Shown: positions 18,798 to 41,199 of the stretch, one piece after another | Position numbering within the stretch: the first letter of the stretch is position 1 | Layout of the letters: each line of letters starts with the position of its first letter | Source of the DNA: an uncultured Candidatus Woesearchaeota archaeon | GTDB lineage: Archaea > Nanobdellota > Nanobdellia > UBA10117 | Assembly: GCA_903864915.1 (NCBI GenBank) | Contig: CAIPHS010000003.1 | Coordinates: forward strand, 5,345-69,344 | Length of the DNA stretch: 64,000 nucleotides | Direction of reading: 5' to 3' | Made by a program: the position numbers and the translations under genes | The notes under the pieces: generated by a model | The model's input: the letters and a program-made list of their open reading frames with translations, nothing else | The model's database searches: none | What the model was told of the DNA's origin: nothing

Positions 18798-21074
18798 ATG
18801 GCAGAGCCAGGCGAATATCAAATTACAAGGGAAGGCGGGGAGAAGGTCTTAAGGATAAATTATGAAGGCGCCATCTACACCCCATCCATAGAAGACGACC
18901 GCAACATAATGTCCCGCATATTTGACATAATTCTGGACGTGGGCAAGGTTTCTAAAATAGTTTTCCTCCAGAGAGAGGAATACGAGTATGATTGGCCCCA
19001 GGTCAGGTTGCTTTTGGAGATAGTTGATGCTTACAAGAAACTGGTCAAGGAGGAAAATATCCTTGATTTCGGAAAATTAGGTTTGGCGCCCGAATGCCAG
19101 CGCTTCCTGCCGGCATGGAGCGATTTCCTGAGGGATACAATAATGCACCAGCTGAAGGAAGACCCTGTCGGGGCTTTCGTTTCTTTAGTCAGAAGGCACC
19201 GGGAGGAGATGATTAAGCAGCAAAGCCCTCCGACTCCAGAATATGCCTCTTGTGGAGGCCAGTTCGTTGGCATTTTACAGCATGCGATTGATGTCATCGG
19301 CGATACCACGTTGATGAAACTGGCTGCATCAAAACTGCCAGGCTTCAAGCCGGATGACAGGACTGTTTATCGGGAACATTTCAGGCCGTCCATAAGGCCT
19401 TATTTCATGTACACAAAACTTGTTACAGCATTTCCCGCAGGAGCGGAAGAACTTGCATCATACAAGATTGCCGAGAACACCGAAGTCCTCGTGTTAAAAG
19501 TGCCAACTGACATCCGGCCCTTGTACCACATAATTCCGCCAGAATTCAAGCTTACGGAAGACAGGTATGCGCTTTTGACTGAAGCAAGGGAAGTCATGGC
19601 TGAGCACAGGCCCCAGAAAGCGGAATTCATAGACCCAGGAAGGACCCGGGAAATATTTTTTGCAGTCGAGCGGGATTTGCTTGCAGATCTGGCAAGAGCT
19701 AAGGGCCTAAAGCTGACATACAGGGAACTCGAAGAACTTGCCAGGATTTTGCTGAGGTACACGATCGGCTTCGGCCTTATCGAAATACTAATTTCAGACC
19801 CGAATGTGCAGGATATAGTTGTAAATTCTCCATTAGGAAGTACGCCAGTCTCCATAATACATGGGGATTATGGCGAGTGCAGGACAAACATCACACCACT
19901 GCCCAAGGAAGGGGATTCATGGGCAACAAAACTCAGGCTGTTGAGCGGCAGGCCTTTCGACGAAGCAAACCCCGTTCTCGATTCTGATTTGGCGTTGCCT
20001 TATGCAAGGGCGAGAGTTGCGGCATTGCAATATCCACTTTCGCCATTGGGATATGCGTTCGCGTTTAGAAGGCACAGGGACCAGCCATGGACATTGCCGC
20101 TTTTCATAAAGTCAAACATGCTGACACCAATGGCTGCAGGTCTGATATCATTTTTGGTTGATGGTGCAAGAACTATCTTGATTGCAGGTACCCGTAGCGC
20201 AGGCAAGACATCGTTGCTGGGGGCTATGATGGTTGAGATTGCAAGGACCAGCAGAATACTTACAGTTGAAGATACTCTGGAACTGCCCACTGCGCAATTG
20301 CGCGGCCTGAATTATGATATCTTATCACTGAAAACAAGGTCGGTCATAACAGGGTCAGAGGCGGAAGTCCCGGCAGAGCAGGCCATCAGAGCAGCCCTGC
20401 GACTTGGCGACTCCGCATTGATAATAGGCGAAGTAAGAAGTCTGGAAGCCCGCGCACTTTATGAGGCAATGCGTGTCGGCGCCTTGGCAAAAGTCGTTGC
20501 AGGAACAATACATGGAGCAAGCCCGTATGCCGTTTACGACAGAGTCGTAAATGACTTGGGAGTGCCAAAGACAAGCTTCAAAGCCACAGATATAATAATG
20601 GTCGCAAACGTCGTCACATCACCATCCGGTTTTGAAAGATGGCGACGGTTGACGCAGATTTCCGAAGTGCGAAAACTCTGGACAGATGATCCTATTTTGG
20701 AAAAAGGCTTCGCGGATTTGATGACCTACAATGCGGCAAAAGACATTATAGAGACTACGGATGTATTAGTTGAAGGAGAATCCGAGATACTGAAGGCCAT
20801 AGGAGGCAGGGTCAGGGAATGGTCTGGCAACTGGGATGCCATCTGGCAAAACATCGAATTAAGGGCCAAAATCAAGCAGGCCATAGTTGAAGCATCGGAC
20901 AAGGCAAAGATGCCTAATCTGCTAGAAGCCACATTCAGTGTTGCATCAAATGACGAATTCCACAGGCTATGCGACATAGTCGCAAAAGAGGTTGGAGTTA
21001 CAGATCCGAAACGCGTCTTCAATGAGTGGCAGAACTGGCTGAAGCAGCGAATCAAGAAATTGAAAGGAGTGTAA
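18798..21074 (+). CDS. type II/IV secretion-family ATPase (archaeal PilB/FlaI-like), 758 aa with extended N-terminal region
   Basis: Walker A AGTRSAGKTS, Asp box ILTVEDTLEL, Walker B SALIIGEVRS, His box AGTIHGASP. QDIVVNSPLG... resembles the T2SSE N-domain. Confidence 0.85.
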   Translation: MAEPGEYQITREGGEKVLRINYEGAIYTPSIEDDRNIMSRIFDIILDVGKVSKIVFLQREEYEYDWPQVRLLLEIVDAYKKLVKEENILDFGKLGLAPECQRFLPAWSDFLRDTIMHQLKEDPVGAFVSLVRRHREEMIKQQSPPTPEYASCGGQFVGILQHAIDVIGDTTLMKLAASKLPGFKPDDRTVYREHFRPSIRPYFMYTKLVTAFPAGAEELASYKIAENTEVLVLKVPTDIRPLYHIIPPEFKLTEDRYALLTEAREVMAEHRPQKAEFIDPGRTREIFFAVERDLLADLARAKGLKLTYRELEELARILLRYTIGFGLIEILISDPNVQDIVVNSPLGSTPVSIIHGDYGECRTNITPLPKEGDSWATKLRLLSGRPFDEANPVLDSDLALPYARARVAALQYPLSPLGYAFAFRRHRDQPWTLPLFIKSNMLTPMAAGLISFLVDGARTILIAGTRSAGKTSLLGAMMVEIARTSRILTVEDTLELPTAQLRGLNYDILSLKTRSVITGSEAEVPAEQAIRAALRLGDSALIIGEVRSLEARALYEAMRVGALAKVVAGTIHGASPYAVYDRVVNDLGVPKTSFKATDIIMVANVVTSPSGFERWRRLTQISEVRKLWTDDPILEKGFADLMTYNAAKDIIETTDVLVEGESEILKAIGGRVREWSGNWDAIWQNIELRAKIKQAIVEASDKAKMPNLLEATFSVASNDEFHRLCDIVAKEVGVTDPKRVFNEWQNWLKQRIKKLKGV

Positions 21075-23128
21075 TGGCAGAAATCGATGAGCAAGCAAGG
21101 AAAGAACTGTTCATGCGTTACAGAAAGAAGATAGAGGAACAGGTGGGCCAGTCAACGGACATAAGGGAAGAGCCGGAAGTCAGCTATTCGCAGGCCTATG
21201 ATGTATTTAGGAAAGAGCAGCTCGGCCTTTCTCATACGTTGTTCGAAAAGTTATGCAATGGTTCTGAGAGAATTCTGAAATTCAAGCTTAACGAAAAGGA
21301 TGTTGAGAAAATTCAGCCTGCTTTGGACATGACACATATTCGCGCAACTCCTCAAAGTGTATATTCATTTGCACTGCTCTCAACAGTGATTACAGTAATT
21401 GCTTTTTTTGTCATCGGGATTCTGTTAGGTAATATTATTGTAATAGTCACCGGGCTGATGGTTGCCATGGGATTGTTCTTTGCAATCCCTGCGATCCCGA
21501 AGAGACTTTTCATGATTTGGAGGGCAAAGGCGGGCGACCAAATCATACTCGCGGTTTTGTATATGATAATTTACATGGAGCACACACCGAATCTTGAACT
21601 CGCAACATGGTTTGCAGCCAAGCATCTGCCTCCGCCATTGTCACTAGATTTTATCAAAGTCTTATGGGATGTTGAAACAAAAAAGTACAGTAATGTAATA
21701 GCCGCTCTCGAAGATTATATCGAAACGTGGAGAGGCTGGGATGATGCCTTCATCGAATCTGTGCATGTAATGGAGACGAGCCTTGTCGCGGAGACGAAGG
21801 AGGAGAGGCTGAAGACTCTCGAAAAAGCCGAGGAGATAATTCTTGACGGCACATTTGACAAAATGATGACTTATGCGCATAATCTTCAAAGTCCGATAGA
21901 AACTGTGCATATGCTGGGCACAGTATTGCCTGTAATGGGCCTCGTCATGCTGCCGATGGTTTCTGCCTTTATGGGAGATTCCGTAAAATGGTGGGAAATT
22001 GCAATCATGTATGACATAATTTTGCCGTTTGCAGTTTATGCGCTATCGAGGTCGGTTTTGTCTGTAAGGCCTGCGGGAGCAAATCCTGCAGATGTCTATA
22101 TACATTTGACTGAAAAATATGCAAAGCCAAAGATAGCGCCAAGAATTGTAGGTTTCATGCTCGCGGCAGCAATTGCAACGCCTGCATTCCTTTATTTCAT
22201 ATCGCGGTTCCCTACAGGTGATGCAGCCTTTACAAATACGCCACTTTTGTTTTCAGTCTCAATTATTATCGCCATTGGTGTCGGGATAGCTGCTTACTAT
22301 TGGTATCGTGTTCATACTGTCATAAAAATAAAGAAAAAGATAACGCAGATAGAGGATGAATTTGCATCAGCAATCTTCCAGCTCGGAAGCAAGATAGGAG
22401 AAGGAGTCCCCGTTGAGGCAGCATTTTCATCTGTGATTGAAACCATGCCAAAAGCTGAAGTCACAGATTTCTTCAGAATAGTTGACAGGAACATCAGGGA
22501 AGAGGGCATGTCACTGAAAGACGCCATATTCGATGAAAAGAACGGCGCCCTCGCATTTTATCCTTCAGCTATCATAAAATCAGTGATGCAGACACTTGTT
22601 GAAGCTTCAAAGAAATCTCCAGAGATTGCAGCATCTTCTTTGACAACAATCTCGCGCTATCTCATAAATGCTCATCGTGTCAATGAAAGGCTGAAAGACC
22701 TGCTTTCAGATACCACATCTAGCATGTCTATGCAGATTAAGATGTTCGCACCGGTTATTTCTGGAATTGTAGTCGGTCTCAGCGCCCTGACAACCTCAAT
22801 TCTATCAAGCTTAGGTACAAAACTTTCAGGCTTCGAAGCCGGTGGTATGGAAAGTGCAGGTTTCGGCACAGGACTTCTGCAGGTTTTCCAAATATCGCAC
22901 ATGATGCCTGCATGGCAGTTTCAGCTTATTGTCGGCATCTACCTGATACAAATTGTATTTATAATGACATACCTGCTTAATGGAATCGTCAACGGCCCCG
23001 ACCAGCTGGAGGAGCAGGATATGCTTTACAAAAACATGTTCTATGCGGTGGCATTTTATGCTCTTGTCACGGTTATTTCAGTTTTGCTGTTTTCAAATCT
23101 CGTGGGAGGAATAACACAAACGATCTAA
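21074..23128 (+). CDS. FlaJ/TadC/PilC-like polytopic platform protein (684 aa)
   Basis: Start chosen at MAEIDEQ (TAATG overlap with the ATPase stop, GGAG upstream); the track starts at 21026. Two blocks of TM helices are separated by cytoplasmic helical domains, and the gene directly follows the ATPase. Confidence 0.7.
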   Translation: MAEIDEQARKELFMRYRKKIEEQVGQSTDIREEPEVSYSQAYDVFRKEQLGLSHTLFEKLCNGSERILKFKLNEKDVEKIQPALDMTHIRATPQSVYSFALLSTVITVIAFFVIGILLGNIIVIVTGLMVAMGLFFAIPAIPKRLFMIWRAKAGDQIILAVLYMIIYMEHTPNLELATWFAAKHLPPPLSLDFIKVLWDVETKKYSNVIAALEDYIETWRGWDDAFIESVHVMETSLVAETKEERLKTLEKAEEIILDGTFDKMMTYAHNLQSPIETVHMLGTVLPVMGLVMLPMVSAFMGDSVKWWEIAIMYDIILPFAVYALSRSVLSVRPAGANPADVYIHLTEKYAKPKIAPRIVGFMLAAAIATPAFLYFISRFPTGDAAFTNTPLLFSVSIIIAIGVGIAAYYWYRVHTVIKIKKKITQIEDEFASAIFQLGSKIGEGVPVEAAFSSVIETMPKAEVTDFFRIVDRNIREEGMSLKDAIFDEKNGALAFYPSAIIKSVMQTLVEASKKSPEIAASSLTTISRYLINAHRVNERLKDLLSDTTSSMSMQIKMFAPVISGIVVGLSALTTSILSSLGTKLSGFEAGGMESAGFGTGLLQVFQISHMMPAWQFQLIVGIYLIQIVFIMTYLLNGIVNGPDQLEEQDMLYKNMFYAVAFYALVTVISVLLFSNLVGGITQTI

Positions 23129-23129
23129 A

Positions 23130-23234: not shown

Positions 23235-23235
23235 C

Positions 23236-23814
23236 ATGCCAGAATACACGCTTGAAAAGCTGGTGATAATCGTCTTGGTTGTAGTTGCATTTATCATCCT
23301 TGCACTGATTCTTACAGCATTAAAAGTTGGAGGTGGGTTTTTCTATGCGGGCTGCGAGGGTCAGATAGAAGGTACCAGATGCACAGGCCATATCGACTCA
23401 GGATGCTTTGGTGGTGAAGTTAATGGCGTCTGCATAGAAGGTATAATAGACCAAAACATAACAACAGTTACTTGCAAGGAAAATGTCAAGCCGATAGCGG
23501 CAATAGCAAATCCGAGATGTGAATCCTTTAAGAATTTTTCACAGTGCGTCGGGACAAGTTATCCAAGAGTTGCAAGGCCTGATGAGAACCTGTCTGTCTG
23601 CCTTTATGTTACAAATGGGCTAAAGGTAGCTGGCGAGGATGTAAGTTGCCTGATGAACGCACAAGTAGTTTGTGATGATTTCAGCCAGAGCACCTCGCCG
23701 AAATGCCAGGATGTTCCCGGTTGTACACCTGTTAACGTAATTAAGAAAGCCATACAAGGCTTAAATCCACAGAAACAAAAATGCAGTATTGAAGTGGGTG
23801 CAATATGTTTGTGA
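23236..23814 (+). CDS. N-terminally anchored Cys-rich extracellular protein (192 aa)
   Basis: Hydrophobic N-terminus KLVIIVLVVVAFIILALILTAL, with many Cys residues spread through the remainder. Confidence 0.6.
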   Translation: MPEYTLEKLVIIVLVVVAFIILALILTALKVGGGFFYAGCEGQIEGTRCTGHIDSGCFGGEVNGVCIEGIIDQNITTVTCKENVKPIAAIANPRCESFKNFSQCVGTSYPRVARPDENLSVCLYVTNGLKVAGEDVSCLMNAQVVCDDFSQSTSPKCQDVPGCTPVNVIKKAIQGLNPQKQKCSIEVGAICL

Positions 23815-24947
23815 TAAAAGGAAAAAGAGGCAGCGCCAAAAGCGAAGCTTTTGGCTGGTCTCGCCAAGCTGAACAAAGTTCAGCTGGATCCAGAAAATTG
23901 TCTAGCAATTTTCTTGGTTTTCCAAAAGGAAAACGAGGTATAGCTGCTGAAACAATCGGAGAGCTAATAATAGTCCTGGCAGCTTGCATCATAATTTTAT
24001 GGATAGTTCTTGGAATTTCCGGCTATCTGTCCCCAACAACTGCAAGCGTTGGCTGCGGCCTGAATCTCAGGGTGGCAGCGGCAACATTATCTCACTCGAC
24101 AGTCACAGGTCCTGCTGGCCTAAACAGTGTCACTTTCCTAGGCGCCCCAGTCCTCATGTGTAACCAGTATCAGCAGCCTGTTGATATCAATGCCGCAAAC
24201 TTTGGTGCGTGTCCCGGCATCGCAGACTTTTGCAAAGGGGCTAAAGGTGATTTATTGGAAGAATGCTGGCAGCAGTGTGCAAGGATACAGATAGACAAGC
24301 TGACAGATGTCTGCTGGACCATGGCGGGAAGCGGCAAGCTTGATTTCAAAGACACGATTTTCGCACAGGCAAAAGAACTGTTTACCAAAACTATTCCATC
24401 GGTTGGCAAGGTTGTTGCAGGAACCACCACGTTTTTTATTCTTGGGCCCATAGCTGCAGAAGCAATAAACGATGGTGTAACAGAGCTGACTGCGGAAGTG
24501 TTAACCAAGGCAAAGGTATTGCGTTGTTTCAGGTACAGGGTTGTAAATCCAGTAATCGGGCCTGACAGGAAAAATGTAAATTATGCAGATTATAGTTTTG
24601 GTCGCAGCTGGGCCTATAATCTTAGTGGAAGCAGCGCCGATAAAATTTGCACGCCTTCAACCAGCAATCTCAACTGTTCGTTCGGCGGAGAGGGCGTACC
24701 ATACATAACAGACAAGTACAATTTCACAAGCATGCCTCAGGATGCTGTTAAAATAGTTAAGCTACCTCCACTTAATCAAAAATTTGTGTTCGTGACTGAC
24801 GTGGGGGGCTATATGAATTATAACATAACTGACCCAAGGAACCAGGTTTGTTACATAGCATACTATCAGTCAAGCTCAGGGGATTTCGTGATAAGAAGCT
24901 GCAAAGCTTGGAATGAATACGCAGGGAATGCTATATACATAAATTGA
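23805..24947 (+). CDS. pilin-like protein with long leader and class III-type signal (380 aa)
   Basis: Leader KGKRGSAKSEAFGWS...FPKGKRGIAAETIGELIIVLAACIIILWIVLG, with a leader motif shared with the ORF at 29629. Confidence 0.6.
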   Translation: MFVIKGKRGSAKSEAFGWSRQAEQSSAGSRKLSSNFLGFPKGKRGIAAETIGELIIVLAACIIILWIVLGISGYLSPTTASVGCGLNLRVAAATLSHSTVTGPAGLNSVTFLGAPVLMCNQYQQPVDINAANFGACPGIADFCKGAKGDLLEECWQQCARIQIDKLTDVCWTMAGSGKLDFKDTIFAQAKELFTKTIPSVGKVVAGTTTFFILGPIAAEAINDGVTELTAEVLTKAKVLRCFRYRVVNPVIGPDRKNVNYADYSFGRSWAYNLSGSSADKICTPSTSNLNCSFGGEGVPYITDKYNFTSMPQDAVKIVKLPPLNQKFVFVTDVGGYMNYNITDPRNQVCYIAYYQSSSGDFVIRSCKAWNEYAGNAIYIN

Positions 24948-24999: not shown

Positions 25000-27900
25000 A
25001 TGCAAGCTGAGACCTTAGCTAGAACAATGATGCCTTTGGTGCCAAAGGTTATCCACTCAAAGTGCTTTAATAAAAATTCGAGGGAATTGTTCTCAGAGCT
25101 TTGTCCGGTAACAGAATGCGAGCAGGGCAAGCCCACAAATGAGTATGTCTTGCAAAAAGTTAATTCTGCGTATCAAAATCTGGTTTTGCGATGGGAAGAG
25201 TTCAAGCCATTTATTGAAGCGATAAATGAAGGCAAGGCCGTCTGGCAGCGCAATTTTTCAATAAATAAGCACGAGTACAAAACAGTGACTCTGGACGATA
25301 TGCTTGTCGCACACGAATTTGTAAATAAAAATAACACAAAGCAGGGAGTTTGCTTTCTGCCCCCCGGCTATGCCGGCATTTTGACGCAAGAGGATGGTGC
25401 AGAGCTCAGGTTTGATGAAGTTTACAAGGCCTTGGGATACGGGGATGAATTTCTTCCGATTTTAGATGCAGACATAAAAGACAGGGAGAAGCATTTTGAA
25501 GAATTCGGGCAGAAGTTTGATGCAGCCCCTGCCTTAAGTATAACAAGGGAATTCTATTCAGATATGTGTGCATTACTTGCACAGACCCTGCAGCCCTTTC
25601 ATGCAGCAGCAAGAAACAAAAAAGCATTCGAGCAGATGCTTGATGTAATAGGAGAAGAGCGTCCCGAAGTTTATAATTTTCTTATCCAGAATTATGGCTC
25701 TGCAGAAGGACTTTCAAAAATCATAGAGCACGAAGCCAATAAGCAACTGGCAATAGGCGTTCAGCGTGAAGATGCTAAAGATAATGAAGGAATCAGCCTG
25801 CCGACAAAGCTGGCATCAATAATTTTCCCAAGCCTTATTGCGCTTGCAGGCTGGGCGGGCGCGGCTGCAGGCGAAGGCCCTGATGCGCATAAGGATTCTG
25901 GCGCGCATTCAAGGGCTTCGGATAGTGACTGGTCTGAGAAAAATATGGCAGTTCATCCGCCTGCAAGATACGGCCAGGCAATGGCTGGCGTTTATGGCGA
26001 CAGCAAGGTCGTCCTGTTTGGCGGCTTCGGAAATAAAACTTTTTTTAGCGATACATGGGTTTACGACGCTGGTAAAGGTGTTTGGGAGAACAAAACACCT
26101 GCGCTATCACCTTCTGCAAGAACAGCGGCGGCTATGGCTGGTGTTTTTGGCACAAGCAAGGTCGTCCTGTTTGGCGGGGTCGATGGTTACACAGGTCTTT
26201 CAGATACATGGGTGTATGATGTCAAGACAAATACATGGACAAATCTTTCTCCGCAGGAATCCCCAGCAGGAAGGACAACTGAAATAGCCAGCATCTCAGG
26301 AGATGACAAAATAGTTCTGTTCGGCGGGTCTGACTATGATAAGACTTACGGAGATACTTGGGTTTATGATTTAAGTGATAATAAATGGATACCTGCCGCA
26401 TCCGGCCCTTCGGAAAGAACAGCCCAAGCCATGGCCAATATTGATAGCACTGATAAAGTTGTTATGTTTGGCGGATTTTATTATGGCGCGCGCCTTGCAG
26501 ACACCTGGGTTTACTCTCAAAATACCAATCAGTGGGAGCAGAAAAATATATCCAGCCCGTCAGCCCGCGATGGGCATTCGATGGCAACCATGTTTGGGGA
26601 TGATAAAGTTGTTATGTTTGGCGGCCAGGGCTATGATCCGGCATCAGGTACGTGGGTTTATAGTTTGAGTGATAATAAATGGTCAGAAAAAAGCACAGCA
26701 TCCTCGCCTGTTGTACGAAGCAGTTTGACAATGGCTGGAATTTATGGCACGAAAGATGTGCTCATGTTCGGCGGAACCAATCACCAAAATACTCCTAGCG
26801 GAGACAATGTTTATGGAGACACCTGGGTGTATGGTGCTGCAGGTGTTCAGCCTCCTCCAGATTCGCAATTAATTGTCCAGCTTTCAGATACGCACATCGG
26901 AGCACAGGGCGCTGATGTCGAGATGCAAAAGATGGTTGATAAGATTCTGCATTTCGGCACAAAGCCAAAATATGTTGTAGTAACAGGGGATATTGTTGAT
27001 TTCGGCTATGGTGATGATGGCGCCGTAAACTATCACCGGTTTGTGGAGCTGATTCAGCCGCTTGAAAATGCAGGCATCAAGGTCTATACGGTGCCTGGAA
27101 ATCATGACTGGAGAGCAAGCGATGATAAGGTTGGCTCACAGGCCTATGTTGGCGGCTTGGATGATATCTTGAATACGCGGCTGCAAAATTACCGAACAAT
27201 CATGGGTGACAGGGACATCTCAGGCAAGGCCATAGATGATGGCAATTATGTCATAATAGGGTTGGATAGCGGTCATGATATTTTTCTGGACCCTAATTAT
27301 CCTATTATTGCGCCGAGAGGGAGCGGTCTGAAGGATGTCCAGGTTTCCTGGCTGGATAACACGCTTGATAATCTTGATGGCAAGCTTGATGGCAAGGATG
27401 CAAGCGGCAAGGAAAAAATAATAATCATGCACCATCAGGGCTATAACCAGGTTTTACTGGGCCAGGCAGGCGTGATAAACAATAACCAGGACCAGTTCTT
27501 GAAAATAAATAAGAATTATGATGTCAATGTCGTGCTTGGAGGCCACACGCACAAAAATTCTGTACAGACAAAAGACAGCACAAGATATGTGCAGACTGCG
27601 TCTGCAACATACGATTTGACTTGGAGAAATGTTTCTATTATGAATTTCAATGGGCAGTGGAGAGTTGTGGTTTCGAATCCACAAATAATTCAGAAGACTG
27701 TAACTGCAAGGACTGGCTGCCCCGTTGATGTTGCAGCATATGACAGCTCAGGCAATAAGATTGAGCCAAGAGTGAAAAGTGTTTTTGCAGTTGATGATAA
27801 GGGTTCAAAACAGACAGAGCTTTCAGTCTATTATGAGCCAAACTTGAGATTTAGAGTCGTAGGAACCGCAGATGCGGGCAGTAATTCATCCTATAGCATT

Positions 27901-28298: not shown

Positions 28299-28469
28299 AT
28301 GGTCATGGCTGGTAAAAAAGGAACAGAAGCCTGGTGGGGCTTTCTTGCAGGCGCATTAATCATAATCGCTGTTGTCATAATTTTGCTCGTATATTTTGTA
28401 AAAGTCAAGGGTGTGGGCCTCAGCTCTGTAAGCTCCATAGGAAACTCGCTTAACAATCTGTTCAGGTAA
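28299..28469 (+). CDS. mini pilin-like peptide (56 aa)
   Basis: Below the track cutoff. My translation is MVMAGKKGTEAWWGFLAGALIIIAVVIILLVYFVKVKGVGLSSVSSIGNSLNNLFR. Paralog of 40055..40234. Confidence 0.5.
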   Translation: MVMAGKKGTEAWWGFLAGALIIIAVVIILLVYFVKVKGVGLSSVSSIGNSLNNLFR

Positions 28470-28470
28470 A

Positions 28471-31393: not shown

Positions 31394-32061
31394 GCATAAA
31401 GATACCGCCAAAAACCATAATTTCCCTGATAATAACAATCATCATGATAGTTGTTGTCTATGCTATTATTGCTCCGATACTTACGGGCCAGCAGGTGAGG
31501 GCTTTTAATCAGCTTGGCGATGCCCTAGAGCAGGCCTGCGCTTCAAATACGAACGATGTGAGGCAGCTGACAATTTTCATGCCAGACTCTTCAGGCAATA
31601 CCGAATTGAATACTGTTTTCTATTACCTTGCTGTCGACCAGAGCAAGCGCTCGCTCGTCCTTGCAAGCAGGACATATGGTGTGGAAAAGAATGATTACCT
31701 CGTGCAGTTTGTAGATTATGTCAGGGGAAAGCCCGGAAACAAAATAATAAGCGAGAGGGTTTTGAAAAACTGCCTGAATGCTGGTATTCGCGTGTGCGGG
31801 CAATTTGACCCAACCAAAGACCCGAATTGCGGGGATTATCAGTTTGAACCTGAGGAAGGCGCGGAATCCTTGTCATTCACTTTAAACAAGACTACTGAGT
31901 CCAAGGTTTTAATGAGCTACACAAGAACAACTGTTTGCGGAGATGGTGAGTGCTGCAACAAAGGAAGTGGCTGTCCAGACTGCACGCCACAGGAAAATTC
32001 GGACAACTGCCCGCAGGATTGCGAAGAGTCAAAGCCCTGCAAGGTTTCTACTAAGCAATAA
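31390..32061 (+). CDS. N-anchored extracellular protein with Cys-rich C-terminus (223 aa)
   Basis: KTIISLIITIIMIVVVYAIIAPIL, with C-terminus VCGDGECCNKGSGCPDCTPQENSDNCPQDCEESKPC. The start overlaps the upstream stop (GTGA context). Confidence 0.6.
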   Translation: MSIKIPPKTIISLIITIIMIVVVYAIIAPILTGQQVRAFNQLGDALEQACASNTNDVRQLTIFMPDSSGNTELNTVFYYLAVDQSKRSLVLASRTYGVEKNDYLVQFVDYVRGKPGNKIISERVLKNCLNAGIRVCGQFDPTKDPNCGDYQFEPEEGAESLSFTLNKTTESKVLMSYTRTTVCGDGECCNKGSGCPDCTPQENSDNCPQDCEESKPCKVSTKQ

Positions 32062-32109
32062 TTCTGAAAGATATAGAAAAATTAGCCTAGTGATTTTCTA
32101 TTCCTTAAA

Positions 32110-32127
32110 CTCGCCTTTTGTGGCGAG
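32110..32127 (+). other. perfect 6-bp hairpin (CTCGCC-TTTTGT-GGCGAG) in the intergenic gap
   Basis: Read directly from the sequence. It lies between the 31390..32061 stop and the next TATA-like box. Function unknown (terminator or processing site?). Confidence 0.3.
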
Positions 32128-32133
32128 TGTAAG

Positions 32134-32143
32134 TTATTTAAAT
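32134..32143 (+). promoter_or_regulatory. candidate TATA box
   Basis: TTATTTAAAT lies about 30 nt upstream of the ATG at 32172. The start context GGCCACTATG is shared with the gene at 35235. Confidence 0.45.
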
Positions 32144-32171
32144 CAGGAAAGGCGAATTTTAATAGGCCACT

Positions 32172-34201: not shown

Positions 34202-35149
34202 TTAGATAACCAGGCTGACACTCTTTTTCCCGCTTATTATTGTCTGTGACGCCTCTAAAAATCCATAAGCAGAAGCGTATTGCCACATTGCCAAGATGTC
34301 TTCAAGGTTTACTGGTTTCAGGCTTTCGATTTCCTGGTTTAGCGCTTCAGAGAGCGCATAAATTTGCTGTGAATTTTGCGGGATTTTGCTTCCATCAGGA
34401 CCTTTTAGCACGCTGTTGACATTCGTATGGAACCTTTCGGTGCCTGGTATTCCTATTTTTACTGCACCACCTAAAAAGCCAATAGCTTCTTGCCAAGACA
34501 CCCTATCAATCTCGGTTTCGAGCCCGATAGCATTAAAGGGTTCGTATTTTGGCTTCCCACCTTTATATTTGACAAATTTTTTTAGCGTAAGATAAGGAAG
34601 ATTACAAGCCTGGGCGAAGCTTTGGAAGTCTATTTTGCCAAAAAGTTGCATCGTGGCAAATTCAATGTTTGATTCAGTATAGGTGGCATCTATTATGATG
34701 CGCTTTCCTGTAGAGTATAATTTCCCTGCCGCAAGTATTGATTTGGAGTCTGACCAGTGTTGGAATACCCACAAACCACCAGCCTTTTGCGATCGTTCAT
34801 CATTCGGTGCGGGCAGCTCTTTCCAGTACTCATCTTTGAATAAGAGAAAACACCTTAGCGGTTCTGGCACTTGGTATGTAGAGGAAAAGACTTTTCGTAC
34901 TTTCGTGGTGATTGGGCCTTCTAAAAACATCGCCTGAGCCACCGGAGGCGTTTTAGTATCAGCTACGGTTCTCCCTTCTTTTTGGTACAGAACGTCTTCG
35001 GCAAGGGCATTCGGGTCAAAGTACTTCTTCTGGTTCTGCTGGCAGTACTGTGCTATGAACTGCTGAAGCGAGAAATTAACAGGGATTTCGTGGGTTCCTA
35101 TCTTGAATTCCACAAGTCGCGTATCTTGATACTGGGGTGCGGTTGACAT
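34202..35149 (-). CDS. hypothetical soluble protein (315 aa) on the opposite strand inside the pilus-like locus
   Basis: ORF track. No TM segment or signal. No motif recognised. Confidence 0.55.
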   Translation of the reverse strand: MSTAPQYQDTRLVEFKIGTHEIPVNFSLQQFIAQYCQQNQKKYFDPNALAEDVLYQKEGRTVADTKTPPVAQAMFLEGPITTKVRKVFSSTYQVPEPLRCFLLFKDEYWKELPAPNDERSQKAGGLWVFQHWSDSKSILAAGKLYSTGKRIIIDATYTESNIEFATMQLFGKIDFQSFAQACNLPYLTLKKFVKYKGGKPKYEPFNAIGLETEIDRVSWQEAIGFLGGAVKIGIPGTERFHTNVNSVLKGPDGSKIPQNSQQIYALSEALNQEIESLKPVNLEDILAMWQYASAYGFLEASQTIISGKKSVSLVI

Positions 35150-35234: not shown

Positions 35235-35882
35235 ATGCACTTAGATAGCAAACGGGGGGTAGAGCAGCCGCAACTTATTGTATATGTCTTATTTACTATA
35301 ATCCTTACCTTGTCAGGAATTTATGTCGCATTTGTTTACCTGGGCGGCATAAATATCACGTTTGATTTCCATGATTATGCGTCTCGGCTAAATGTTGTCA
35401 CATCAAAGATGATTTATTCCACAGATTGTTTCGGCATCGAAAGCTCTTATATTGCAGACGATGGCACGCATTATCAAAAAGAGATTGGCGTTATCAACTG
35501 GACTAAATTCAACAGCACGAAGACTATTCCGGAGGGGTGCGTATCAGCTGGTGACAGCCCTGTTTGGGTGGAACTGACATTCCGCGATTCGAAGATAAGC
35601 GATACCGCATGGAGCTGCTATGGGTGTCCAGCCATATGCGAAAAAGCAAAGACTGACTGTTATTCATCTTGCCAAATTGGCAGCAACCTTATGTGCATCC
35701 CAGCTTGTGATAAGGAGTTCAACAATTGTGTAAATTCTTGCATGGGCACATGCAAAGAACCTATAGACCAAGAGCTGAGCGATCCAGACAAATGGCAGCA
35801 GTCTGAAAGGAAAATACTTGTTTTCATACAAAATGGCACATCAATTGGCCTGGGTCAATTAAGAGTGAGGTTGCAGAACTGA
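35235..35882 (+). CDS. pilin-like protein, Cys-rich (215 aa)
   Basis: MHLDSKRGVEQPQLIVYVLFTIILTLSGIYVAF, with the Cys cluster CYGCPAICEKAKTDCYSSCQIGSNLMCIPACDKEFNNCVNSCMGTC. Confidence 0.6.
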   Translation: MHLDSKRGVEQPQLIVYVLFTIILTLSGIYVAFVYLGGINITFDFHDYASRLNVVTSKMIYSTDCFGIESSYIADDGTHYQKEIGVINWTKFNSTKTIPEGCVSAGDSPVWVELTFRDSKISDTAWSCYGCPAICEKAKTDCYSSCQIGSNLMCIPACDKEFNNCVNSCMGTCKEPIDQELSDPDKWQQSERKILVFIQNGTSIGLGQLRVRLQN

Positions 35883-35883
35883 T

Positions 35884-36774
35884 ATGATTAAAGGCAAAAA
35901 AGCGGGTGCAGACATGCTTATGGAGCTGGCATTGTCGGCAATAATATTTTTTGTCATCATATTTTTCCTTTTCGGCATAAACATACCAAAACAGAAACTT
36001 AACGCCTGTGCCGCGGTTGTTTCTGCAGATGCAACATTGGCCTGTGAAACCTCTTTGATGAATCTGATGAAAGCCACATCCTCTGACGGGACCCCTTATT
36101 CGGATTTCCTGATGAACAGCTGGGTAAAAAACCAGGACCCTAATGACCTTACAGCCTGGCAGGATGAGGTAACATCTATTCTTGATTTTGCTTTGGGTGC
36201 GACTGATTGGGAGATGAACATAACTTTGCCAAACGGAACTGATGTCGCATCACTCGGAGGTATAGAAACCCAGCAGCTGGGCTGCAATTATACTATGCCT
36301 TTCCCCGCTGTTCTGATAAAAAAAGACTGTGGCTATTCAGAATCCAAAACTCCTACAGTCACATCTGTAGTTTTTGACACGCCAGATGGTTCTATGAATT
36401 TCACAGTGACTGATGATAATACGTGGCTGGGTGTGGATTGCATAAGCGGTTGCACTGCGCTGCTTACGACAACATCCGTTTATGAGGCGCCGCCTCTAAA
36501 GAAAATTCCAAATGACCAGTCAGTTGTTGATTCCCTGACGCTTCCAGTAAAAAGCACCTCTGGCTACAGATATGATGTTAGTGTCGAGGAGCTTTCAGAC
36601 AGGACGGATAAATATGGCAATCCACTACCTAAATCCGGATTTGCAGTAAATGTAACATTAAGTCGCAGCTCAACGCTGCAGGATTGTGGCCTTACTGTAA
36701 CATTAAAGACCACAAATATAACTGATATGGTACAGACTTGCGCTGGCAAGCAAATCACAAGCTTAGCTACGTAA
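35884..36774 (+). CDS. pilin-like protein (296 aa)
   Basis: MIKGKKAGADMLMELALSAIIFFVIIFFLFG. Starts 2 nt after the upstream stop. Confidence 0.6.
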   Translation: MIKGKKAGADMLMELALSAIIFFVIIFFLFGINIPKQKLNACAAVVSADATLACETSLMNLMKATSSDGTPYSDFLMNSWVKNQDPNDLTAWQDEVTSILDFALGATDWEMNITLPNGTDVASLGGIETQQLGCNYTMPFPAVLIKKDCGYSESKTPTVTSVVFDTPDGSMNFTVTDDNTWLGVDCISGCTALLTTTSVYEAPPLKKIPNDQSVVDSLTLPVKSTSGYRYDVSVEELSDRTDKYGNPLPKSGFAVNVTLSRSSTLQDCGLTVTLKTTNITDMVQTCAGKQITSLAT

Positions 36775-36775
36775 A

Positions 36776-37918
36776 ATGATGTCAAAAAAAGGTCAGGGTC
36801 TGGCATTGATTTCGATACTTGTGCTAGTCGCGATTCTTTATTTCGTTTTCAAGTACAATACAGACACCTATTCATTCATAATGACCGCCGGCGATGAGCA
36901 GGCGCACCTCGTTACCGCTTATACGGAAGGGGCAAAGGCACAGTCATTTGTGCAGATAGCTGCGAGGCAGGCAGCCTTCGAGACAATTTGGAATCTTAGC
37001 GGCAAATCACAGGAAGCGAGCGCATTAGGTACGTGCGAAAAAAACCTAGCTTTTCCATCTGACTTTAAAGCACGGTTTAACAAATATCTTAGTTTATACG
37101 CGCCCGCAACAGACCTCGTAAGTACAAGCATTCCTGATTATGACTTGTCATTTGATTGTTCTTCCGGAAATAATTTGAAAATTGAGGGCAGGGGCTATTC
37201 TCAAAAGTGCGTTTTGAGCAGAACTTTCCCATTTCCCAAATATCCCTGCGAAGACCAGGATAACAGAACAAACTGTACGAACATGAACTTTGCACAAAGC
37301 GCCACTTACAACAATGGAAAGGCATGTACCTGGACTACAGACTTGAATTGCGCTGAGTCACTTCCGCAGCCAGCCTGCAGCGCTGCAAATGACAAGGACA
37401 CTTGCAACGCGATAAAAGCCAAAGACGGCAACCCCTATTGCCAATGGCAGGTTTCATACGCTGAGCCCGTTAGCGTTGTTTCGGCCCCGTTGATAAACTA
37501 CCAGTTTTCAGTGGACACAAATGCACATTTTATAGAGAACATAAGTGGCACGGAGTATGTACAGTTCACAAATGCAAGAATAAAGGCTTTCAAGCCGGGC
37601 TGCATAATCTCAGTTCCTGCGAATCTGCTGAACAATACTGCATTTGACATTTCGATATTGTATACAGGCGAAACAGAGCCTAGTGATATAAGACTCCAAG
37701 TGTCACATAGCTTTGCCCAGTTTGCTGATAGAAACCTTTCAACAGGCATAAACGGGCTTGATGCGAATGACAAATCATATGAAGATGGCAAATCATATTA
37801 CTACACAATTACTCTTACAAATAATACTTATTACGCATACGTGAGTTGCAAGGACAGCAACAGTAATAGTGTAACAGCAACAAAAGACTTTACTGTCCTG
37901 CCACCACCACAAACATGA
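36776..37918 (+). CDS. pilin-like protein with class III signal (380 aa)
   Basis: MMSKKGQGLALISILVLVAILYFVF, with a Cys-containing extracellular region. Confidence 0.65.
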   Translation: MMSKKGQGLALISILVLVAILYFVFKYNTDTYSFIMTAGDEQAHLVTAYTEGAKAQSFVQIAARQAAFETIWNLSGKSQEASALGTCEKNLAFPSDFKARFNKYLSLYAPATDLVSTSIPDYDLSFDCSSGNNLKIEGRGYSQKCVLSRTFPFPKYPCEDQDNRTNCTNMNFAQSATYNNGKACTWTTDLNCAESLPQPACSAANDKDTCNAIKAKDGNPYCQWQVSYAEPVSVVSAPLINYQFSVDTNAHFIENISGTEYVQFTNARIKAFKPGCIISVPANLLNNTAFDISILYTGETEPSDIRLQVSHSFAQFADRNLSTGINGLDANDKSYEDGKSYYYTITLTNNTYYAYVSCKDSNSNSVTATKDFTVLPPPQT

Positions 37919-37928
37919 AGGTTTCAAA

Positions 37929-40067
37929 ATGAAAAAAGGAATATCTCCAGTGGTGGCAACACTATTGACGATGATAATCATACTTGTGGCATTTGTAATC
38001 TTTGCATCCTTTTCAAAAGGCTCTTTCCTGCAGGAAAAAGTTCTGTTGTCAAAACAATCTGAGGCGATTGGAGAGATTCCATGCTCAGCGTCTCCATCAG
38101 TTCAGTTTGTGAATACGATTGCCGGAGTCTATTTCATAAACTCGAAACCTGGACTAGCGTCGAACATGATTCAATTCGTAAACTTGCCGCTAACTGCAAA
38201 GATAAGCTCATCCTGCCTTGAAGATATTGCAGTGACTTGGATTTATGGCGATGGCCAGCAGGAGGATAGGAATTGCACGTATGTTGCTGGAAAATATGTT
38301 CAACGAAACATAACGACAGGTGATGCCACAGACCTTGATTGTGGTTTCATGAATCACACTTACCTTGTAGAGCAGGGAGGCTTATGGACAATTAAGGACA
38401 TCAGGCTGCAGGTCTTTGGCTTGAGGTCAGCGTACTATACGGAAGCGGAAGCTGTGGGATTTGTAACAGATCCGAATTTCATAGTGTCATTTACAAAGGC
38501 TCCAGACACCAGCGATTACAGCTGTGTTTTGCTTAATGTAAACTCTACAAATACAATAGGCGAAAATATCAATAGTTCAAGGTTTAACATATTAGACAAC
38601 AGCAGGTTGCAGTCTGCAGAGTTTGTTAATTACTCATCAGACACAGACGCAATCGCTTCTTACAGGGCTACGGCAGGCAAGCTCCCTATCCATACCATAC
38701 AGGTGTTTGCGACACATGGGTACCAGACGACGAATTCGACAGAGGTTAAATTCAATGTGCCTGCCAAAATATTGCCCAGAAAAGAGATTTTGGTCTATGG
38801 CAGCAATGGCGACCTTGAGGTTCTTCAAAATTCAACAATGCTAAACGGTCCGGCTTGCACTTACCCAGGTAATCCTGGTTTGGGAATACCATCTTTTTTC
38901 ATTCCGCTTTGCCCATGGAATTGCGTGAAAGACGATAAAAACGCTGCAAAATGCGGTGGGCCTGATTTCCCAAGGCTAGACAATTCAAAAGATGATTTGA
39001 CTCCAGTCGCAGTCACATCCGGCGATGTCAATCTGGATGGAGGGGATGAGATAATCGTGCTGCTAAAGTCCACCGGCAAGAACAAGCACGGCGAGATACT
39101 TGCTTTCAAGAACAGCGATTTCCCAAGGGATGCAGACTTCAGCACCATATCTCTTGATTCTCTAAAGGACAAGTTCATGTATGCTGACACCTCGAATGAG
39201 AAATGGGTAGACATCGCAGTAGGGCATAATATTTCAGTTGGTGATGGCAGAGTGATTGAGAAAGCTATAATTGCATTGTCACAAGATTCCTTGGCGCTTT
39301 ACGAAGTCCAGGGAAACAGCATCGTTCTTGTAGACGAAACAGACCTGCCAACCAAAGATTATTTGGGAATAGACAGTTGGAAAAGACTCGCTACAGCGGA
39401 CTTTGACGGTGATGGGGAGGATGAGATATTGGCTTTGGGCGGAAATAGCCTTTATGGATTTAAGCGTGCAAACCTTGCTAACATGGGCCGGTATGGTATA
39501 GCACTTGATAAGAAAAATTGGGTGGGGCTTGCAGCAGGCAATCTTGATGGCGGAGGAAAAAAAGACGATGCTGTTGTGATAGCTGATAATGGTGGGATTG
39601 AGTGGATGCGAGATATTTTCTTCTGGTCCGACACATCCAAGAAAGGATCACTGATAGGTGTACCTGTAGGTAACCAGCAGTTTGAATCGAAATTCCCTAA
39701 ATGGATCGCCGTCGACCCCCCCGAATTCTCTGTCGTGTGGCGTGATATGACTGCCGCAGATGTAAACAAGGATGGGACTGATGAGCTGGTAACAATTGAT
39801 GAAAATGCCAATAACGATGAGGTCTGCATGTTCAGGTTATCTACATTGATTTCGCTGACCGCTGATGATTGGAAAACAATTGACTATAATATGACTGCAT
39901 TTAAGGAAAAAGTAACTCCTATTTGTCTCACCAGCAATGAGAAATTAACCCGCAGCGATAGTATTTATTTCGTGCCGCCCTCATCTCAAGGTGCGTCTGG
40001 CAATCCTCTTCCTCTTAATTGGGATTGGATTTCCATTGCGGCGGGAGATGTGGCATGCTTCCTGTGA
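37929..40067 (+). CDS. 712-aa pilin-signal protein with PKD-like domain and FG-GAP-like repeats (adhesin candidate)
   Basis: MKKGISPVVATLLTMIIILVAF is a canonical archaeal pilin/flagellin-type N-terminus. VTWIYGDGQ...HTY is a PKD-like motif. There are four DxDxDG-type repeats (SGDVNLDGGDEIIVL, ATADFDGDGEDEILAL, AAGNLDGGGKKDDAVVIA, TAADVNKDGTDELVTI) plus a weaker fifth segment (aa 428-452) in a propeller-like spacing. Confidence 0.7.
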   Translation: MKKGISPVVATLLTMIIILVAFVIFASFSKGSFLQEKVLLSKQSEAIGEIPCSASPSVQFVNTIAGVYFINSKPGLASNMIQFVNLPLTAKISSSCLEDIAVTWIYGDGQQEDRNCTYVAGKYVQRNITTGDATDLDCGFMNHTYLVEQGGLWTIKDIRLQVFGLRSAYYTEAEAVGFVTDPNFIVSFTKAPDTSDYSCVLLNVNSTNTIGENINSSRFNILDNSRLQSAEFVNYSSDTDAIASYRATAGKLPIHTIQVFATHGYQTTNSTEVKFNVPAKILPRKEILVYGSNGDLEVLQNSTMLNGPACTYPGNPGLGIPSFFIPLCPWNCVKDDKNAAKCGGPDFPRLDNSKDDLTPVAVTSGDVNLDGGDEIIVLLKSTGKNKHGEILAFKNSDFPRDADFSTISLDSLKDKFMYADTSNEKWVDIAVGHNISVGDGRVIEKAIIALSQDSLALYEVQGNSIVLVDETDLPTKDYLGIDSWKRLATADFDGDGEDEILALGGNSLYGFKRANLANMGRYGIALDKKNWVGLAAGNLDGGGKKDDAVVIADNGGIEWMRDIFFWSDTSKKGSLIGVPVGNQQFESKFPKWIAVDPPEFSVVWRDMTAADVNKDGTDELVTIDENANNDEVCMFRLSTLISLTADDWKTIDYNMTAFKEKVTPICLTSNEKLTRSDSIYFVPPSSQGASGNPLPLNWDWISIAAGDVACFL

Positions 40068-40234
40068 TTGGCAAAAAGGGAATGGAGACTGTTTGGTGGG
40101 TCCTTCTCGTTTTAGTGATTATGATAGTCTCCCTGCTGATATTTTTTGTATTCATAAGAAGCGGGCTAATCAAGCTTAACACGCCTCTTGGAGGAATATT
40201 CGGTAGCCTCCAGAGCATAGGGAATTCAACATGA
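40055..40234 (+). CDS. mini pilin-like peptide (59 aa)
   Basis: MLPVIGKKGMETVWWVLLVLVIMIVSLLIFFVFIRSGLIKLNTPLGGIFGSLQSIGNST. Paralog of 28299..28469. The track ORF starts earlier (40019), inside the upstream gene. Confidence 0.5.
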   Translation: MLPVIGKKGMETVWWVLLVLVIMIVSLLIFFVFIRSGLIKLNTPLGGIFGSLQSIGNST

Positions 40235-41199
40235 AAAAAGGAAAAAAAGGAGTTATAGAGCCGGCAGCAGCATTTCTGATCACCATGATTTTGATAATTG
40301 CTTTTTTCATAATGGCCTACCTGTTTTTATTTACAAGCACAGGCCCGAAAGCTTTAGACGCTTTCAATTATTATGTTGGTTCCAAGGTTGGAATAGTTGT
40401 GACACCCCAGACACTTGAGAAGCTCAAAGGCCCCACTTCATTAAGCGCGCAAATAATGGCTGTGCCGAAATCTCCAGTTTGTGCAAGTGAGCCCATTTAT
40501 TTTTCCGCATATAGCTCAACCCTGCCAGAGGGTGTTAATTTCAGCGATGCGAACTGCTATTGGGATTTTGACACCGCTACAGAACCTTGTTCGGGCATGA
40601 TAGCTCCTCCTGAGGAAATTCCATGCGCGCCTGGATCCCCTTATAATAATTCCAATACGAAGGATGACTATCAGAAGGCCATGTGCTTCGCAGTCTGGAA
40701 GGAATGGCTGAGTACGCAAGACGTGCAGCTTATTGTTGTAGCCGGGGGCAAAACAGATGCAAAAACTTTGACCGTCACAAGCGCCCTTAGCTGTGCCTGT
40801 GCCGTCAGCAGCGGAGCCAACCCTTCAGGCTGTAATGAAGAAGTTGCTACGCAGCCATGGTTGTCATCACCAGCAATAATTGAAAATTACGGAACTTTGA
40901 ATGTGAGTTTCAAAGACAGCTGGAACTTGGCAGCAGTCCATTTGATTATAGTGCCTAATGGCCAGCTGTCAAACCTGAGAGTTGGCAGTGGACCTGACAA
41001 TGGATTTATACTCAAAGGAAATCTTACAAATCCGACAATTGTTTCAGGGTCAGGGCGGGACTCATTTTTGCGTTTTATTGAAGATAAAAGGGGCGATTGC
41101 AGGCTGAACGGACTTGACCCTTGCACAATTCCGCTGGCATTTGCTTTTGATGGTTCTGGCACAATTACAGTAAAAGAAATCTGGATACCACTTTCTTAG
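40231..41199 (+). CDS. pilin-like protein with class III signal (322 aa)
   Basis: MKKGKKGVIEPAAAFLITMILIIAFFIMAYLF. The start overlaps the upstream stop (ATGA). Confidence 0.65.
   Translation: MKKGKKGVIEPAAAFLITMILIIAFFIMAYLFLFTSTGPKALDAFNYYVGSKVGIVVTPQTLEKLKGPTSLSAQIMAVPKSPVCASEPIYFSAYSSTLPEGVNFSDANCYWDFDTATEPCSGMIAPPEEIPCAPGSPYNNSNTKDDYQKAMCFAVWKEWLSTQDVQLIVVAGGKTDAKTLTVTSALSCACAVSSGANPSGCNEEVATQPWLSSPAIIENYGTLNVSFKDSWNLAAVHLIIVPNGQLSNLRVGSGPDNGFILKGNLTNPTIVSGSGRDSFLRFIEDKRGDCRLNGLDPCTIPLAFAFDGSGTITVKEIWIPLS

Follow-up and report, generated by a model that had tools for sequence, protein, structure and literature searches.

A probable type IV filament locus with fast-diverging surface-protein genes in an uncultured DPANN archaeon

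The DNA analysed here is a stretch of 64,000 nucleotides (nt), referred to below as the window, of contig CAIPHS010000003.1 from an uncultured Candidatus Woesearchaeota archaeon (assembly GCA_903864915.1). Between positions 18798 and 41199 it carries, in a DPANN archaeon, a 22-kb gene cluster whose products probably make up a type IV filament (type IV pilus-like) machine. An assembly ATPase gene and a platform gene head the cluster and are followed by about 19 tightly packed plus-strand open reading frames (ORFs), 15 of which begin like archaeal prepilins; in all, about 17 of the encoded proteins are pilin-like or adhesin-like. Most likely the machine is a pilus for adhesion or host contact, composed of short Flp/Epd-like subunits, pilins of a family here termed QGLP and variable adhesin-like minor pilins; for the adhesive, host-contact role itself the scales are about even. 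A first-pass annotation, made from the letters of the DNA and their ORFs, had described a dedicated surface-filament machine of a small-genome archaeon, with an unusually long subunit set and distinct from the archaellum. That description stands, while the host contact it also suggested is something that can only be inferred.

Assembly ATPase and platform protein

The first gene of the cluster (18798-21074, plus strand) encodes a secretion-family assembly ATPase of the T2SSE/VirB11 type with 758 amino acids (aa), which matches PF00437 at E=3.9e-14 and 52.5 bits against a Pfam cutoff of 24.9. It is the single ATPase with such a Walker A motif in the window. The four catalytic boxes read from the sequence in the first-pass annotation are confirmed by an alignment with 16 homologs (53-84% identity), in which the following residues are invariant: G464, R466, S467, G469 and K470 of Walker A; E491, D492, T493, E495 and L496 of the Asp box; G544, E545, R547 and S548 of Walker B; and G569-G573 of the His box.

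In a profile search of PDB with the ATPase alignment, the Archaeoglobus GspE protein (afGspE, 2OAP) ranks first (2e-35), followed by CpaF of the Tad pilus (1e-29) and FlaI (3e-21); both afGspE and CpaF exceed FlaI by 30-50 bits. The NCBIfam equivalog model for FlaI (NF058587) is still the top NCBIfam match by E-value, with 121.5 bits against a cutoff of 550, and the BasE model (NF053672) gives 50.6 bits against a cutoff of 1000. Because of the order of the PDB matches and the FlaI score below cutoff, the protein is considered an archaeal type IV filament ATPase but not an ortholog of the archaellum FlaI.

The ATPase had also been said to have a longer N-terminus than expected, and this is borne out. 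Residues 213-652 align with residues 23-440 of the 2OAP chain, i.e., the match begins only at residue 213, and there is an N-terminal extension of about 190-210 residues beyond afGspE. This extension of about 200 aa is kept across the ATPase family. A PDB profile search with the N-terminal 215 residues yielded only a weak match to a subtilisin prosegment (3e-4), which is held to be uninformative. Some homologs of the ATPase (P0022, P0032, P0048, P0049) are 1164-1267 aa in length and display intein and LAGLIDADG domains (PF14890, PF14528), i.e., they carry inserted inteins.

The second gene (21074-23128, plus strand) has a translated sequence of 684 aa from the ATG at 21074, or 700 aa if an upstream GTG is used, with about 9 hydrophobic segments. 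Pfam gives no match on this copy. A weak PF00482 match is present in 10 of 30 homologs, and full-length relatives at about 30% identity have PF00482 and go under the source names TadB or T2SS F protein. An AlphaFold2 (AF2) model built from a 46-sequence alignment (mean pLDDT, the model's per-residue confidence, 79.6) aligns with the cytoplasmic domains of EpsF and OutF, as solved by crystallography, at a Foldseek probability of 1.00, TM-target 0.70-0.72 and a root-mean-square deviation of about 3.2 Å, and the top-ranked structural match is a PilC model. By transitive PF00482 homology and modelled fold, the protein is thus predicted to be a single polytopic platform, a diverged member of the GspF/PilC/TadC/FlaJ (T2SSF) family, and this agrees with the FlaJ/TadC-like identity proposed at first. 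The platform gene adjoins the ATPase gene in 65 of 80 related loci.

The ATPase-platform family is very large, contrary to the rarity that the first-pass annotation implied. The ATPase is represented by at least 4915 protein clusters, nearly all of 750-770 aa, from Nanoarchaeia, Woesearchaeota and DPANN metagenome-assembled genomes (MAGs), and is found in at least 580 GTDB species representatives (Woesearchaeota, Pacearchaeota, Nanoarchaeia), where the usual annotation is FlaI or TadB. It should be noted that many GTDB representatives with the DPANN-type ATPase (L010, L012, L017, L018, L052 and others) have "uncultured Methanosarcinales archaeon" as their title, and one is called "Armatimonadota bacterium"; these record titles probably stem from mislabelled or contaminated bins.

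Pilin-like and surface-protein genes

The ORF map reproduces the sizes, layout and junctions reported at first, i.e., co-directional, mostly abutting ORFs and a sole opposite-strand gene within the cluster, g16 at 34202-35149. TAATG overlaps are present at 21074 and 29865 and an ATGA overlap at 40231; gaps of 1 nt are found at 28469/28471, 35882/35884 and 36774/36776. The other gaps are mostly 1-52 nt, and none exceeds 110 nt save around the minus-strand gene. One short ORF, of 59 aa (40055-40234), had been overlooked. It begins MLPVIGKKGMETVWWVLLV and is a paralog of the 56-aa g6. A 79-aa ORF at 31943-32182 looks spurious: it has neither a hydrophobic (transmembrane) segment nor a homolog and overlaps g13, and is probably no gene.

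The identity of the downstream proteins as pilins rests on N-terminal architecture and genomic context, not on homology. At least 14 N-termini with a class III-like signal had been claimed, and 15 were counted here (g4, g6-g12, g15, g17-g21 and the ORF at 40055), each with a short basic leader, [KR][GA] and a hydrophobic helix of about 20 residues. The architecture is strongly enriched behind the platform gene, where 12 of the 15 ORFs of at least 60 aa display it, against 1 of 50 in the rest of the window (Fisher p=1.4e-9). As a control, ORFs within 8 kb downstream were counted in 29 related loci that have at least 6 kb of sequence beyond the platform gene. Seven of these loci have at least five such ORFs and 22 have none or one; therefore the detector does not fire on DPANN ORFs generally. 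Past the presumed cut, 11 of the 15 proteins have an Asp or Glu within six residues. Most downstream bodies show even, high Cys counts and N-glycosylation sequons, which are not seen in the ATPase or the platform, and because of these features the bodies are probably extracellular.

The clearest family among these proteins is that of g8 and g9. In an alignment of both with 30 database homologs, the motif [KR][GA]-Q-G-L-P, the helix that follows and six Cys are almost invariant. The leader varies in length and sequence, and [KR][GA]-Q-G is invariant. A processing site would be expected to show such a variable leader around a fixed motif. Among 1.84 billion proteins, 1170 cluster representatives belong to the family at E<=1e-3 and 251 at E<=1e-10, and two further Woesearchaeota loci have a member near the ATPase. 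In the AF2 model of g8 (pLDDT 73.7), a helix at residues 13-33 is followed by a break at GGLG and a confident small Cys-rich domain. A DxNxDGxI...E loop, a probable Ca2+-binding site judging from its sequence, is present in QGLP families A3 and A6, where EF-hand_5 or Dockerin models match 12 of 32 members; the loop is degenerate in the g8 of the window (DLNKNSKIE, at about residues 100-115). The QGLP pilin family is new, with no curated model and no structural match in PDB.

Gene order, for which the first-pass annotation had proposed a comparison of synteny, is maintained in relatives: the order g3-g4-g6-g7-g8-g9-g10-g11-g12-g13-g15-g17 is kept in locus L002, whose ATPase has 69% identity, and the full order is kept in L001 and L082, each with an ATPase of 96% identity. 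Since g5 and g16 are both missing from L002, they are considered variable insertions, and g5 is variable cargo and not core. A pilin cluster beside the motor genes is found only in the clade of the window, L077 and a few others (L001, L082, L002, L004, L005, L006, L007); in typical Woesearchaeota the ATPase-platform pair stands alone.

Sequence conservation differs sharply between the motor and the surface genes. Relative to L082, aa identity is 96% for the ATPase and 83% for the platform, and 23-76% for most surface genes: 76% for g3, 55% for g4, 68% for g8, 60% for g9, 42% for g11, 53% for g12, 56% for g15 and 55-63% for g17-g20. Exceptions are g5 (91%) and g10 (92%). The lowest value is that of g16, which has kept its position (L082:15533-16492) at 23% identity. 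The g5 protein is 91% identical to the L082 copy (6300-9572) and 38% identical to the 940-aa copy of L001 (16189-19011), and this suggests cassette replacement or recombination at the g5 slot. At the nucleotide level, identity to L001 is about 90% in the flanks, 85% in the ATPase-platform block and 67-72% in the pilin region, where it is alignable. The surface cassette is a hotspot of divergence and replacement. Because this divergence is extreme between near-identical strains, it suggests that the surface genes set attachment specificity for a surface or host cell.

The individual genes are on the plus strand unless stated otherwise; a slash marks the presumed cut. Three proteins with plain N-terminal anchors had been reported, and two were counted here (g3 and g13). 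The g3 gene (23236-23814) encodes an N-anchored surface protein with 14 Cys and no [KR][GA] motif, whose N-terminus is MPEYTLEKLVIIVLVVV; the L002 ortholog has a similar one (MPEWTLEQL). This start has no basic leader, and with YTLE.L ahead of a hydrophobic stretch it resembles the way in which mature bacterial type IV pilins begin (FTLIEL...). The other, g13 (31390-32061), is a 223-aa N-anchored Cys-rich protein with 12 Cys, 67% identical to its L082 counterpart, and a paralog of the 158-aa class III-like g12 (30917-31393; IKG/QAEIIFV).

Four very short pilin-like ORFs are present. The g6 protein (28299-28469; 56 aa; KKG/TEAWWGFLAG...) has no globular domain, is 72% identical in L082 and also occurs in L002. 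Its paralog at 40055-40234 reads KKG/METVWWVLLV.... The g7 protein (28471-28647; 58 aa; KKG/DIAYSYIIM...) shows 72-76% identity in L001 and L082 and is recognisable in L002, and g10 (29629-29865; ...PRGKKG/IELTMQVIVVV), of 78 aa or less if an internal ATG is used, has 68% identity in L002. The two QGLP-type proteins are g8 (28687-29205; 172 aa, 12 Cys), with the N-terminus [KR][GA]-QGLPLSFIVIAAI, and its paralog g9 (29246-29635; 129 aa, 8 Cys), which aligns in family A3 and has 29% identity to g8 (E=1.5e-10).

Larger class III-like proteins are found throughout the cluster. The Cys-rich g4 (23805-24947; ...KGKRG/IAAETIGELII) has orthologs in L001, L082 and L002; its true start is probably the TTG at 23898 rather than the ATG at 23805, giving a 13-aa leader. 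An extended leader motif, GWS...FP[KR]GK[KR]G/I, is common to g4 and g10. The 348-aa surface protein g11 (29865-30911) begins SKG/LSWLIWII. The 673-aa g15 (32172-34193; KGKRA/VTDIVLMMG; 31% in L002) has several moderately hydrophobic Gly/Ala-rich segments. Next is the minus-strand g16 (34202-35149), a 315-aa soluble and unannotated protein found at the same position in L082 and L083, for which Pfam, NCBIfam and PDB searches gave no match; it splits the locus into at least two transcription units. Beyond it lie the Cys-rich g17 (35235-35882; 215 aa; SKRG/VEQPQLIVYV; 61% in L082 and 33% in L002), g18 (35884-36774; 296 aa; KKAG/ADMLMELALS) and g19 (36776-37918; 380 aa, 12 Cys), which has a QGL N-terminus (KKG/QGLALISIL). 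The 712-aa g20 (37929-40067) contains FG-GAP-type repeats (FG-GAP_3, 1.5e-4) and is a candidate adhesin. The last gene of the cluster is g21 (40231-41199; KKG/VIEPAAAFLI), encoding a Cys-rich protein of 322 aa.

The g5 protein (25000-28272) is of another kind. It had been noted as a 1090-aa enzyme-like protein, and it indeed shows a Kelch beta-propeller (Kelch families at 1e-24 to 6e-45) and a calcineurin-like metallophosphoesterase domain (Metallophos, 9e-16), with a C-terminal hydrophobic tail followed by RRRK. It has no class III N-terminus.

Upstream genes and chromosomal setting

Four genes upstream of the ATPase, outside the coordinates covered by the first-pass annotation, recur beside it across the family; the denominator below is the 66 loci with at least 1.5 kb of upstream sequence. 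Paralogs A (15884-16501) and B (16548-17147), both on the plus strand, encode polytopic membrane proteins of about 200 aa that have the motif LPFLLIF...K.K.LG in common. Homologs of A lie 1.6-3.8 kb upstream of the ATPase in 41 loci, and those of B upstream of it in 44. Neither has a Pfam match or a PDB relative. A hidden A24-type peptidase was considered for the pair and ruled out, as there is no conserved Asp. Two divergent minus-strand genes encode coiled-coil proteins, one of 200 aa (17596-18198), a candidate cytoplasmic accessory found with the same position and orientation in 48 loci, and one of 178 aa directly upstream of the ATPase (18198-18734), found in 47 loci, in most of them about 50-350 nt from the ATPase start. 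Pfam and PDB profile searches with the coiled-coil pair gave generic coiled-coil matches only. This conserved upstream module is newly recognised here, and its four genes are the best candidates for lineage-specific accessory parts.

The setting of the cluster is chromosomal, archaeal and typical of DPANN, and the organism is a DPANN archaeon of the Nanoarchaeota in the broad sense, whose relatives are named "Candidatus Nanoarchaeia" by NCBI. The flanks encode FEN1, a class I aminoacyl-tRNA synthetase, Trm5/Tyw2, a diphthine-synthase-type methylase, Hjc, phosphoglycerate mutase, an AMP-phosphorylase-like enzyme, Pelota and a fused PriS-PriL primase. The latter is a single 420-aa ORF (60215-61477, minus strand) with the domains of the small and large DNA primase subunits, a fusion known from Nanoarchaeota. 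Directly downstream of g21 are genes for a DUF4013 membrane protein and then a TGS-domain GTPase. A mobile-element or provirus origin of the cluster was ruled out by the uniform G+C content, the housekeeping flanks and the position kept in relatives. Scans of the window for tRNA genes and Rfam families gave no matches.

Two further regions of the window are worth recording. Tandem paralogs at 10416-11405 and 11474-12103 (68% identity over 194 aa) lie in a block at about 9115-13854 of unannotated, largely helical proteins with no Pfam matches. At 54386-57013, three consecutive proteins have lipobox-like signals (..FSGC, ..IGC), one or two of them with CARDB domains, and these represent a second, different type of export signal in the same organism.

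Assembly, alternative explanations and known systems

Assembly of a type IV filament would begin with a prepilin (class III signal) peptidase, whose gene would lie elsewhere, cutting the subunits after [KR][GA], often with Gln at +1. The hexameric ATPase, seated on the platform, would then use ATP to lift the N-terminal helices from the membrane and stack them into the filament. The shaft would be built from the short 56-78-aa subunits g6, g7, g10 and the ORF at 40055, which are of Flp/EpdE-like size, and/or from the abundant QGLP pilins g8 and g9. The larger class III proteins (g4, g11, g12, g15, g17-g21) may be minor or modular pilins with a part in priming assembly or decorating the filament, and the FG-GAP protein g20 is the best candidate for the adhesin. 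The two coiled-coil and two small membrane proteins encoded upstream could serve as accessories, cytoplasmic or membrane-bound.

Several results weigh against this picture. No filament has been seen for any organism carrying the system. An A24 prepilin peptidase was found neither among the 60 window ORFs scanned with Pfam nor in a six-frame scan of the window for the GxGD motif, and no GxGD polytopic ORF is present in any of 81 related loci scanned; flaK is reported in most Woesearchaeota MAGs (PMC11606122). A strict FlaFind-type pattern, re-implemented as [KRDE][GA][ALIFQMVED][ILMVTAS]x3, matches 0 of 21 locus ORFs, and the signal check that the first-pass annotation had proposed turned out negative in this form; the FlaFind training set differs from the present proteins, in which G, P, E or Q occupies the positions past the cut. 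None of PF04021, PF07790 and TIGR02537 reaches threshold on the locus ORFs or on 77 members of the QGLP family; residues 1-28 of g20 match the archaellin/pilin N-terminal model TIGR02537 with 15.9 bits, below the cutoff of 20. The profile searches suggested at the outset therefore gave a mixed outcome: PF00437 recognises the ATPase, PF00482 recognises homologs of the platform but not this copy, and PF04021 and TIGR02537 fall short. A fold search of PDB with the g8 model gave no match, solved pilins included. Finally, the motor pair is without downstream pilin-like genes in 22 of the 29 control loci, and the link between motor and subunits is not universal.

One alternative is that the downstream ORFs encode ordinary N-anchored surface proteins inserted by Sec, in which the basic residue would only follow the positive-inside rule, while the motor pair would serve subunits encoded elsewhere. 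The solitary motor pairs speak for this explanation, as do the silence of predictors and curated models on the N-termini and the lack of a pilin fold match. We nevertheless regard it as very unlikely. K/R is invariably followed by a small residue, leaders differ in length about a fixed [KR][GA]-Q-G, and other membrane-anchored ORFs of the window, like the control loci, essentially lack the motif. The genes are packed in an operon-like manner right behind the motor, in an order kept across 69-96% ATPase identity. Subunits of 56-59 aa are little but helix and would make no sense as stand-alone anchored proteins, and other secreted proteins of the window carry lipobox-type signals instead. An archaellum locus, in which the pair labelled FlaI/FlaJ would be the motor of a swimming filament, is harder still to credit. 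In its favour, FlaI is the best NCBIfam match by E-value, JGI names several family members "archaeal flagellar protein FlaI", and in papers on Woesearchaeota flaI, flaJ, flaB and flaK are counted among the genes for motility (PMC11606122). However, the FlaI equivalog score lies far below its cutoff, the PDB profile favours afGspE and CpaF, and the ATPase has its extra N-domain, whereas archaellum ATPases are described as a minimal form. Moreover, Pfam found no archaellin (PF01917), FlaH, FlaF/G or FlaC/D/E/X among the 60 window ORFs; the first-pass annotation had likewise seen no archaellin, FlaF/G/H or prepilin peptidase in the window.

A bindosome- or pseudopilus-like display system, in which class III proteins would form a short membrane-proximal scaffold showing enzymes or binding proteins for scavenging, also appears unlikely, with more to be said for it. 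DPANN archaea depend on scavenging. No single small pilin dominates the cluster, which has many class III-like proteins of large size (296-712 aa), and a Kelch-propeller surface metallophosphoesterase lies within it. Sivabalasarma and Albers (2026 preprint) argue that archaeal type IV filament machines gain functions from binding proteins that carry class III signals. However, the BasE score given above is far below its cutoff, Pfam detects no substrate-binding or solute-binding domain in any locus ORF, and the metallophosphoesterase g5 is missing from L002 and does not start with a class III signal. A true filament agrees better with the four subunits of Flp/EpdE size and with the abundance of a family of small pilins.

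Taking the locus as a type IV filament machine, a further step is possible but doubtful, namely that it represents a DPANN-specific filament subtype outside the archaellum, Aap, Ups, System 1/Epd, System 2, 4A-4I and the bindosome. Its marks might be an ATPase of about 760 aa with a private N-domain of about 200 aa, one diverged fused platform, the coiled-coil pair with two small membrane proteins, and the QGLP pilins with three disulfides, a Ca-binding loop and no known pilin fold. Should this tentative proposal be true, the hypervariable adhesin cassette would underlie, at the molecular level, the pili seen on ultrasmall archaea that attach to or penetrate hosts, and would determine host range.

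Woesearchaeota, Pacearchaeota and other DPANN of the Nanoarchaeota type are abundant, almost entirely uncultured and thought to be host-attached. Pili-like appendages were imaged on ultrasmall groundwater cells (PMC7906910), and imaged appendages are not tied to genes. The parts list presented here, i.e., a motor module conserved in hundreds of species, a sizeable unannotated pilin family and a set of candidate adhesins whose divergence far outpaces that of the remaining genome, makes it testable how such archaea attach and choose hosts. Ecology papers name these genes flaI/flaJ (PMC11606122), and the routine equation of FlaI/FlaJ with motility in these lineages is probably wrong.

With the archaellum the locus shares a homologous ATPase (ArlI/FlaI) and platform (ArlJ/FlaJ), whose names annotation pipelines pass on, but the FlaI threshold is unmet, archaellins and ArlF/G/H/CDE/X are lacking and the ATPase N-terminus is longer. 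From the bindosome (Bas) it differs in a BasE score far below cutoff and in the lack of solute-binding domains in the locus ORFs. The bacterial Tad/Flp pilus is similar in the ATPase core (CpaF, as given above), in platform homologs annotated TadB and in very short Flp-sized subunits, and several TadE/F-like minor pilins would be expected. Unlike the Tad/Flp pilus, the archaeal locus lacks a secretin, outer-membrane parts and the Flp G/XXXXEY motif; its platform is a single fused protein, and its QGLP pilins are Cys-rich with a globular domain.

The Epd pilus of Methanococcus maripaludis (System 1; clade 1 of the 2016 scheme of Makarova and colleagues) offers a close parallel, with a large multi-gene locus (11 genes in Epd), many different pilin-like proteins, a short major pilin without a globular domain (short subunits of 56-78 aa number four here), many accessory pilins (here 11 larger class III-like proteins) and adhesin-like accessory proteins. 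Gln at +1 after [KR]G, seen in several subunits here, is a likeness to EppA substrates. Differences are also evident: one 684-aa platform gene is present here, as in 65 related loci, whereas two define System 1; neither the window nor the 81 related loci scanned show a dedicated peptidase of the EpdA/EppA type; the ATPase has the extra N-domain of about 200 aa; and PF04021-type models miss the pilins. Some DPANN are reported to have System 1. Makarova, Koonin and Albers (2016), who defined the archaeal ATPase clades, noted nanoarchaeal ATPases for which pilins were not findable. Sivabalasarma and Albers (2026 preprint) stress subsystem-specific ATPase N-domains and place some DPANN in System 1 or 4A, both with two platform genes; Woesearchaeota and Pacearchaeota are unmentioned there.

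Closest in kind are the dark-matter islands of Makarova, Wolf and Koonin (2019, PMC6393860), as their text describes them: ATPase and TadC-like genes are followed by signal-peptide proteins that cannot be annotated and that are predicted to be diverse pilins. Compared on this description, apart from the gene order of Fig. 2A, the present locus is probably of the same kind, and the complete novelty suggested at first does not hold, as DPANN pilin islands beside FlaI/TadC-type genes had been noted there already. In the paragraph concerned the islands are an example, given without a family definition, subunit inventory, conserved accessory genes or divergence analysis. The literature searched contains no description of this architecture, its accessory genes, the QGLP pilin family or the divergence pattern. 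The kind of locus is known and expected; new are the upstream module, the QGLP family, the four pilin-like ORFs of 56-78 aa and the divergence of the surface genes.

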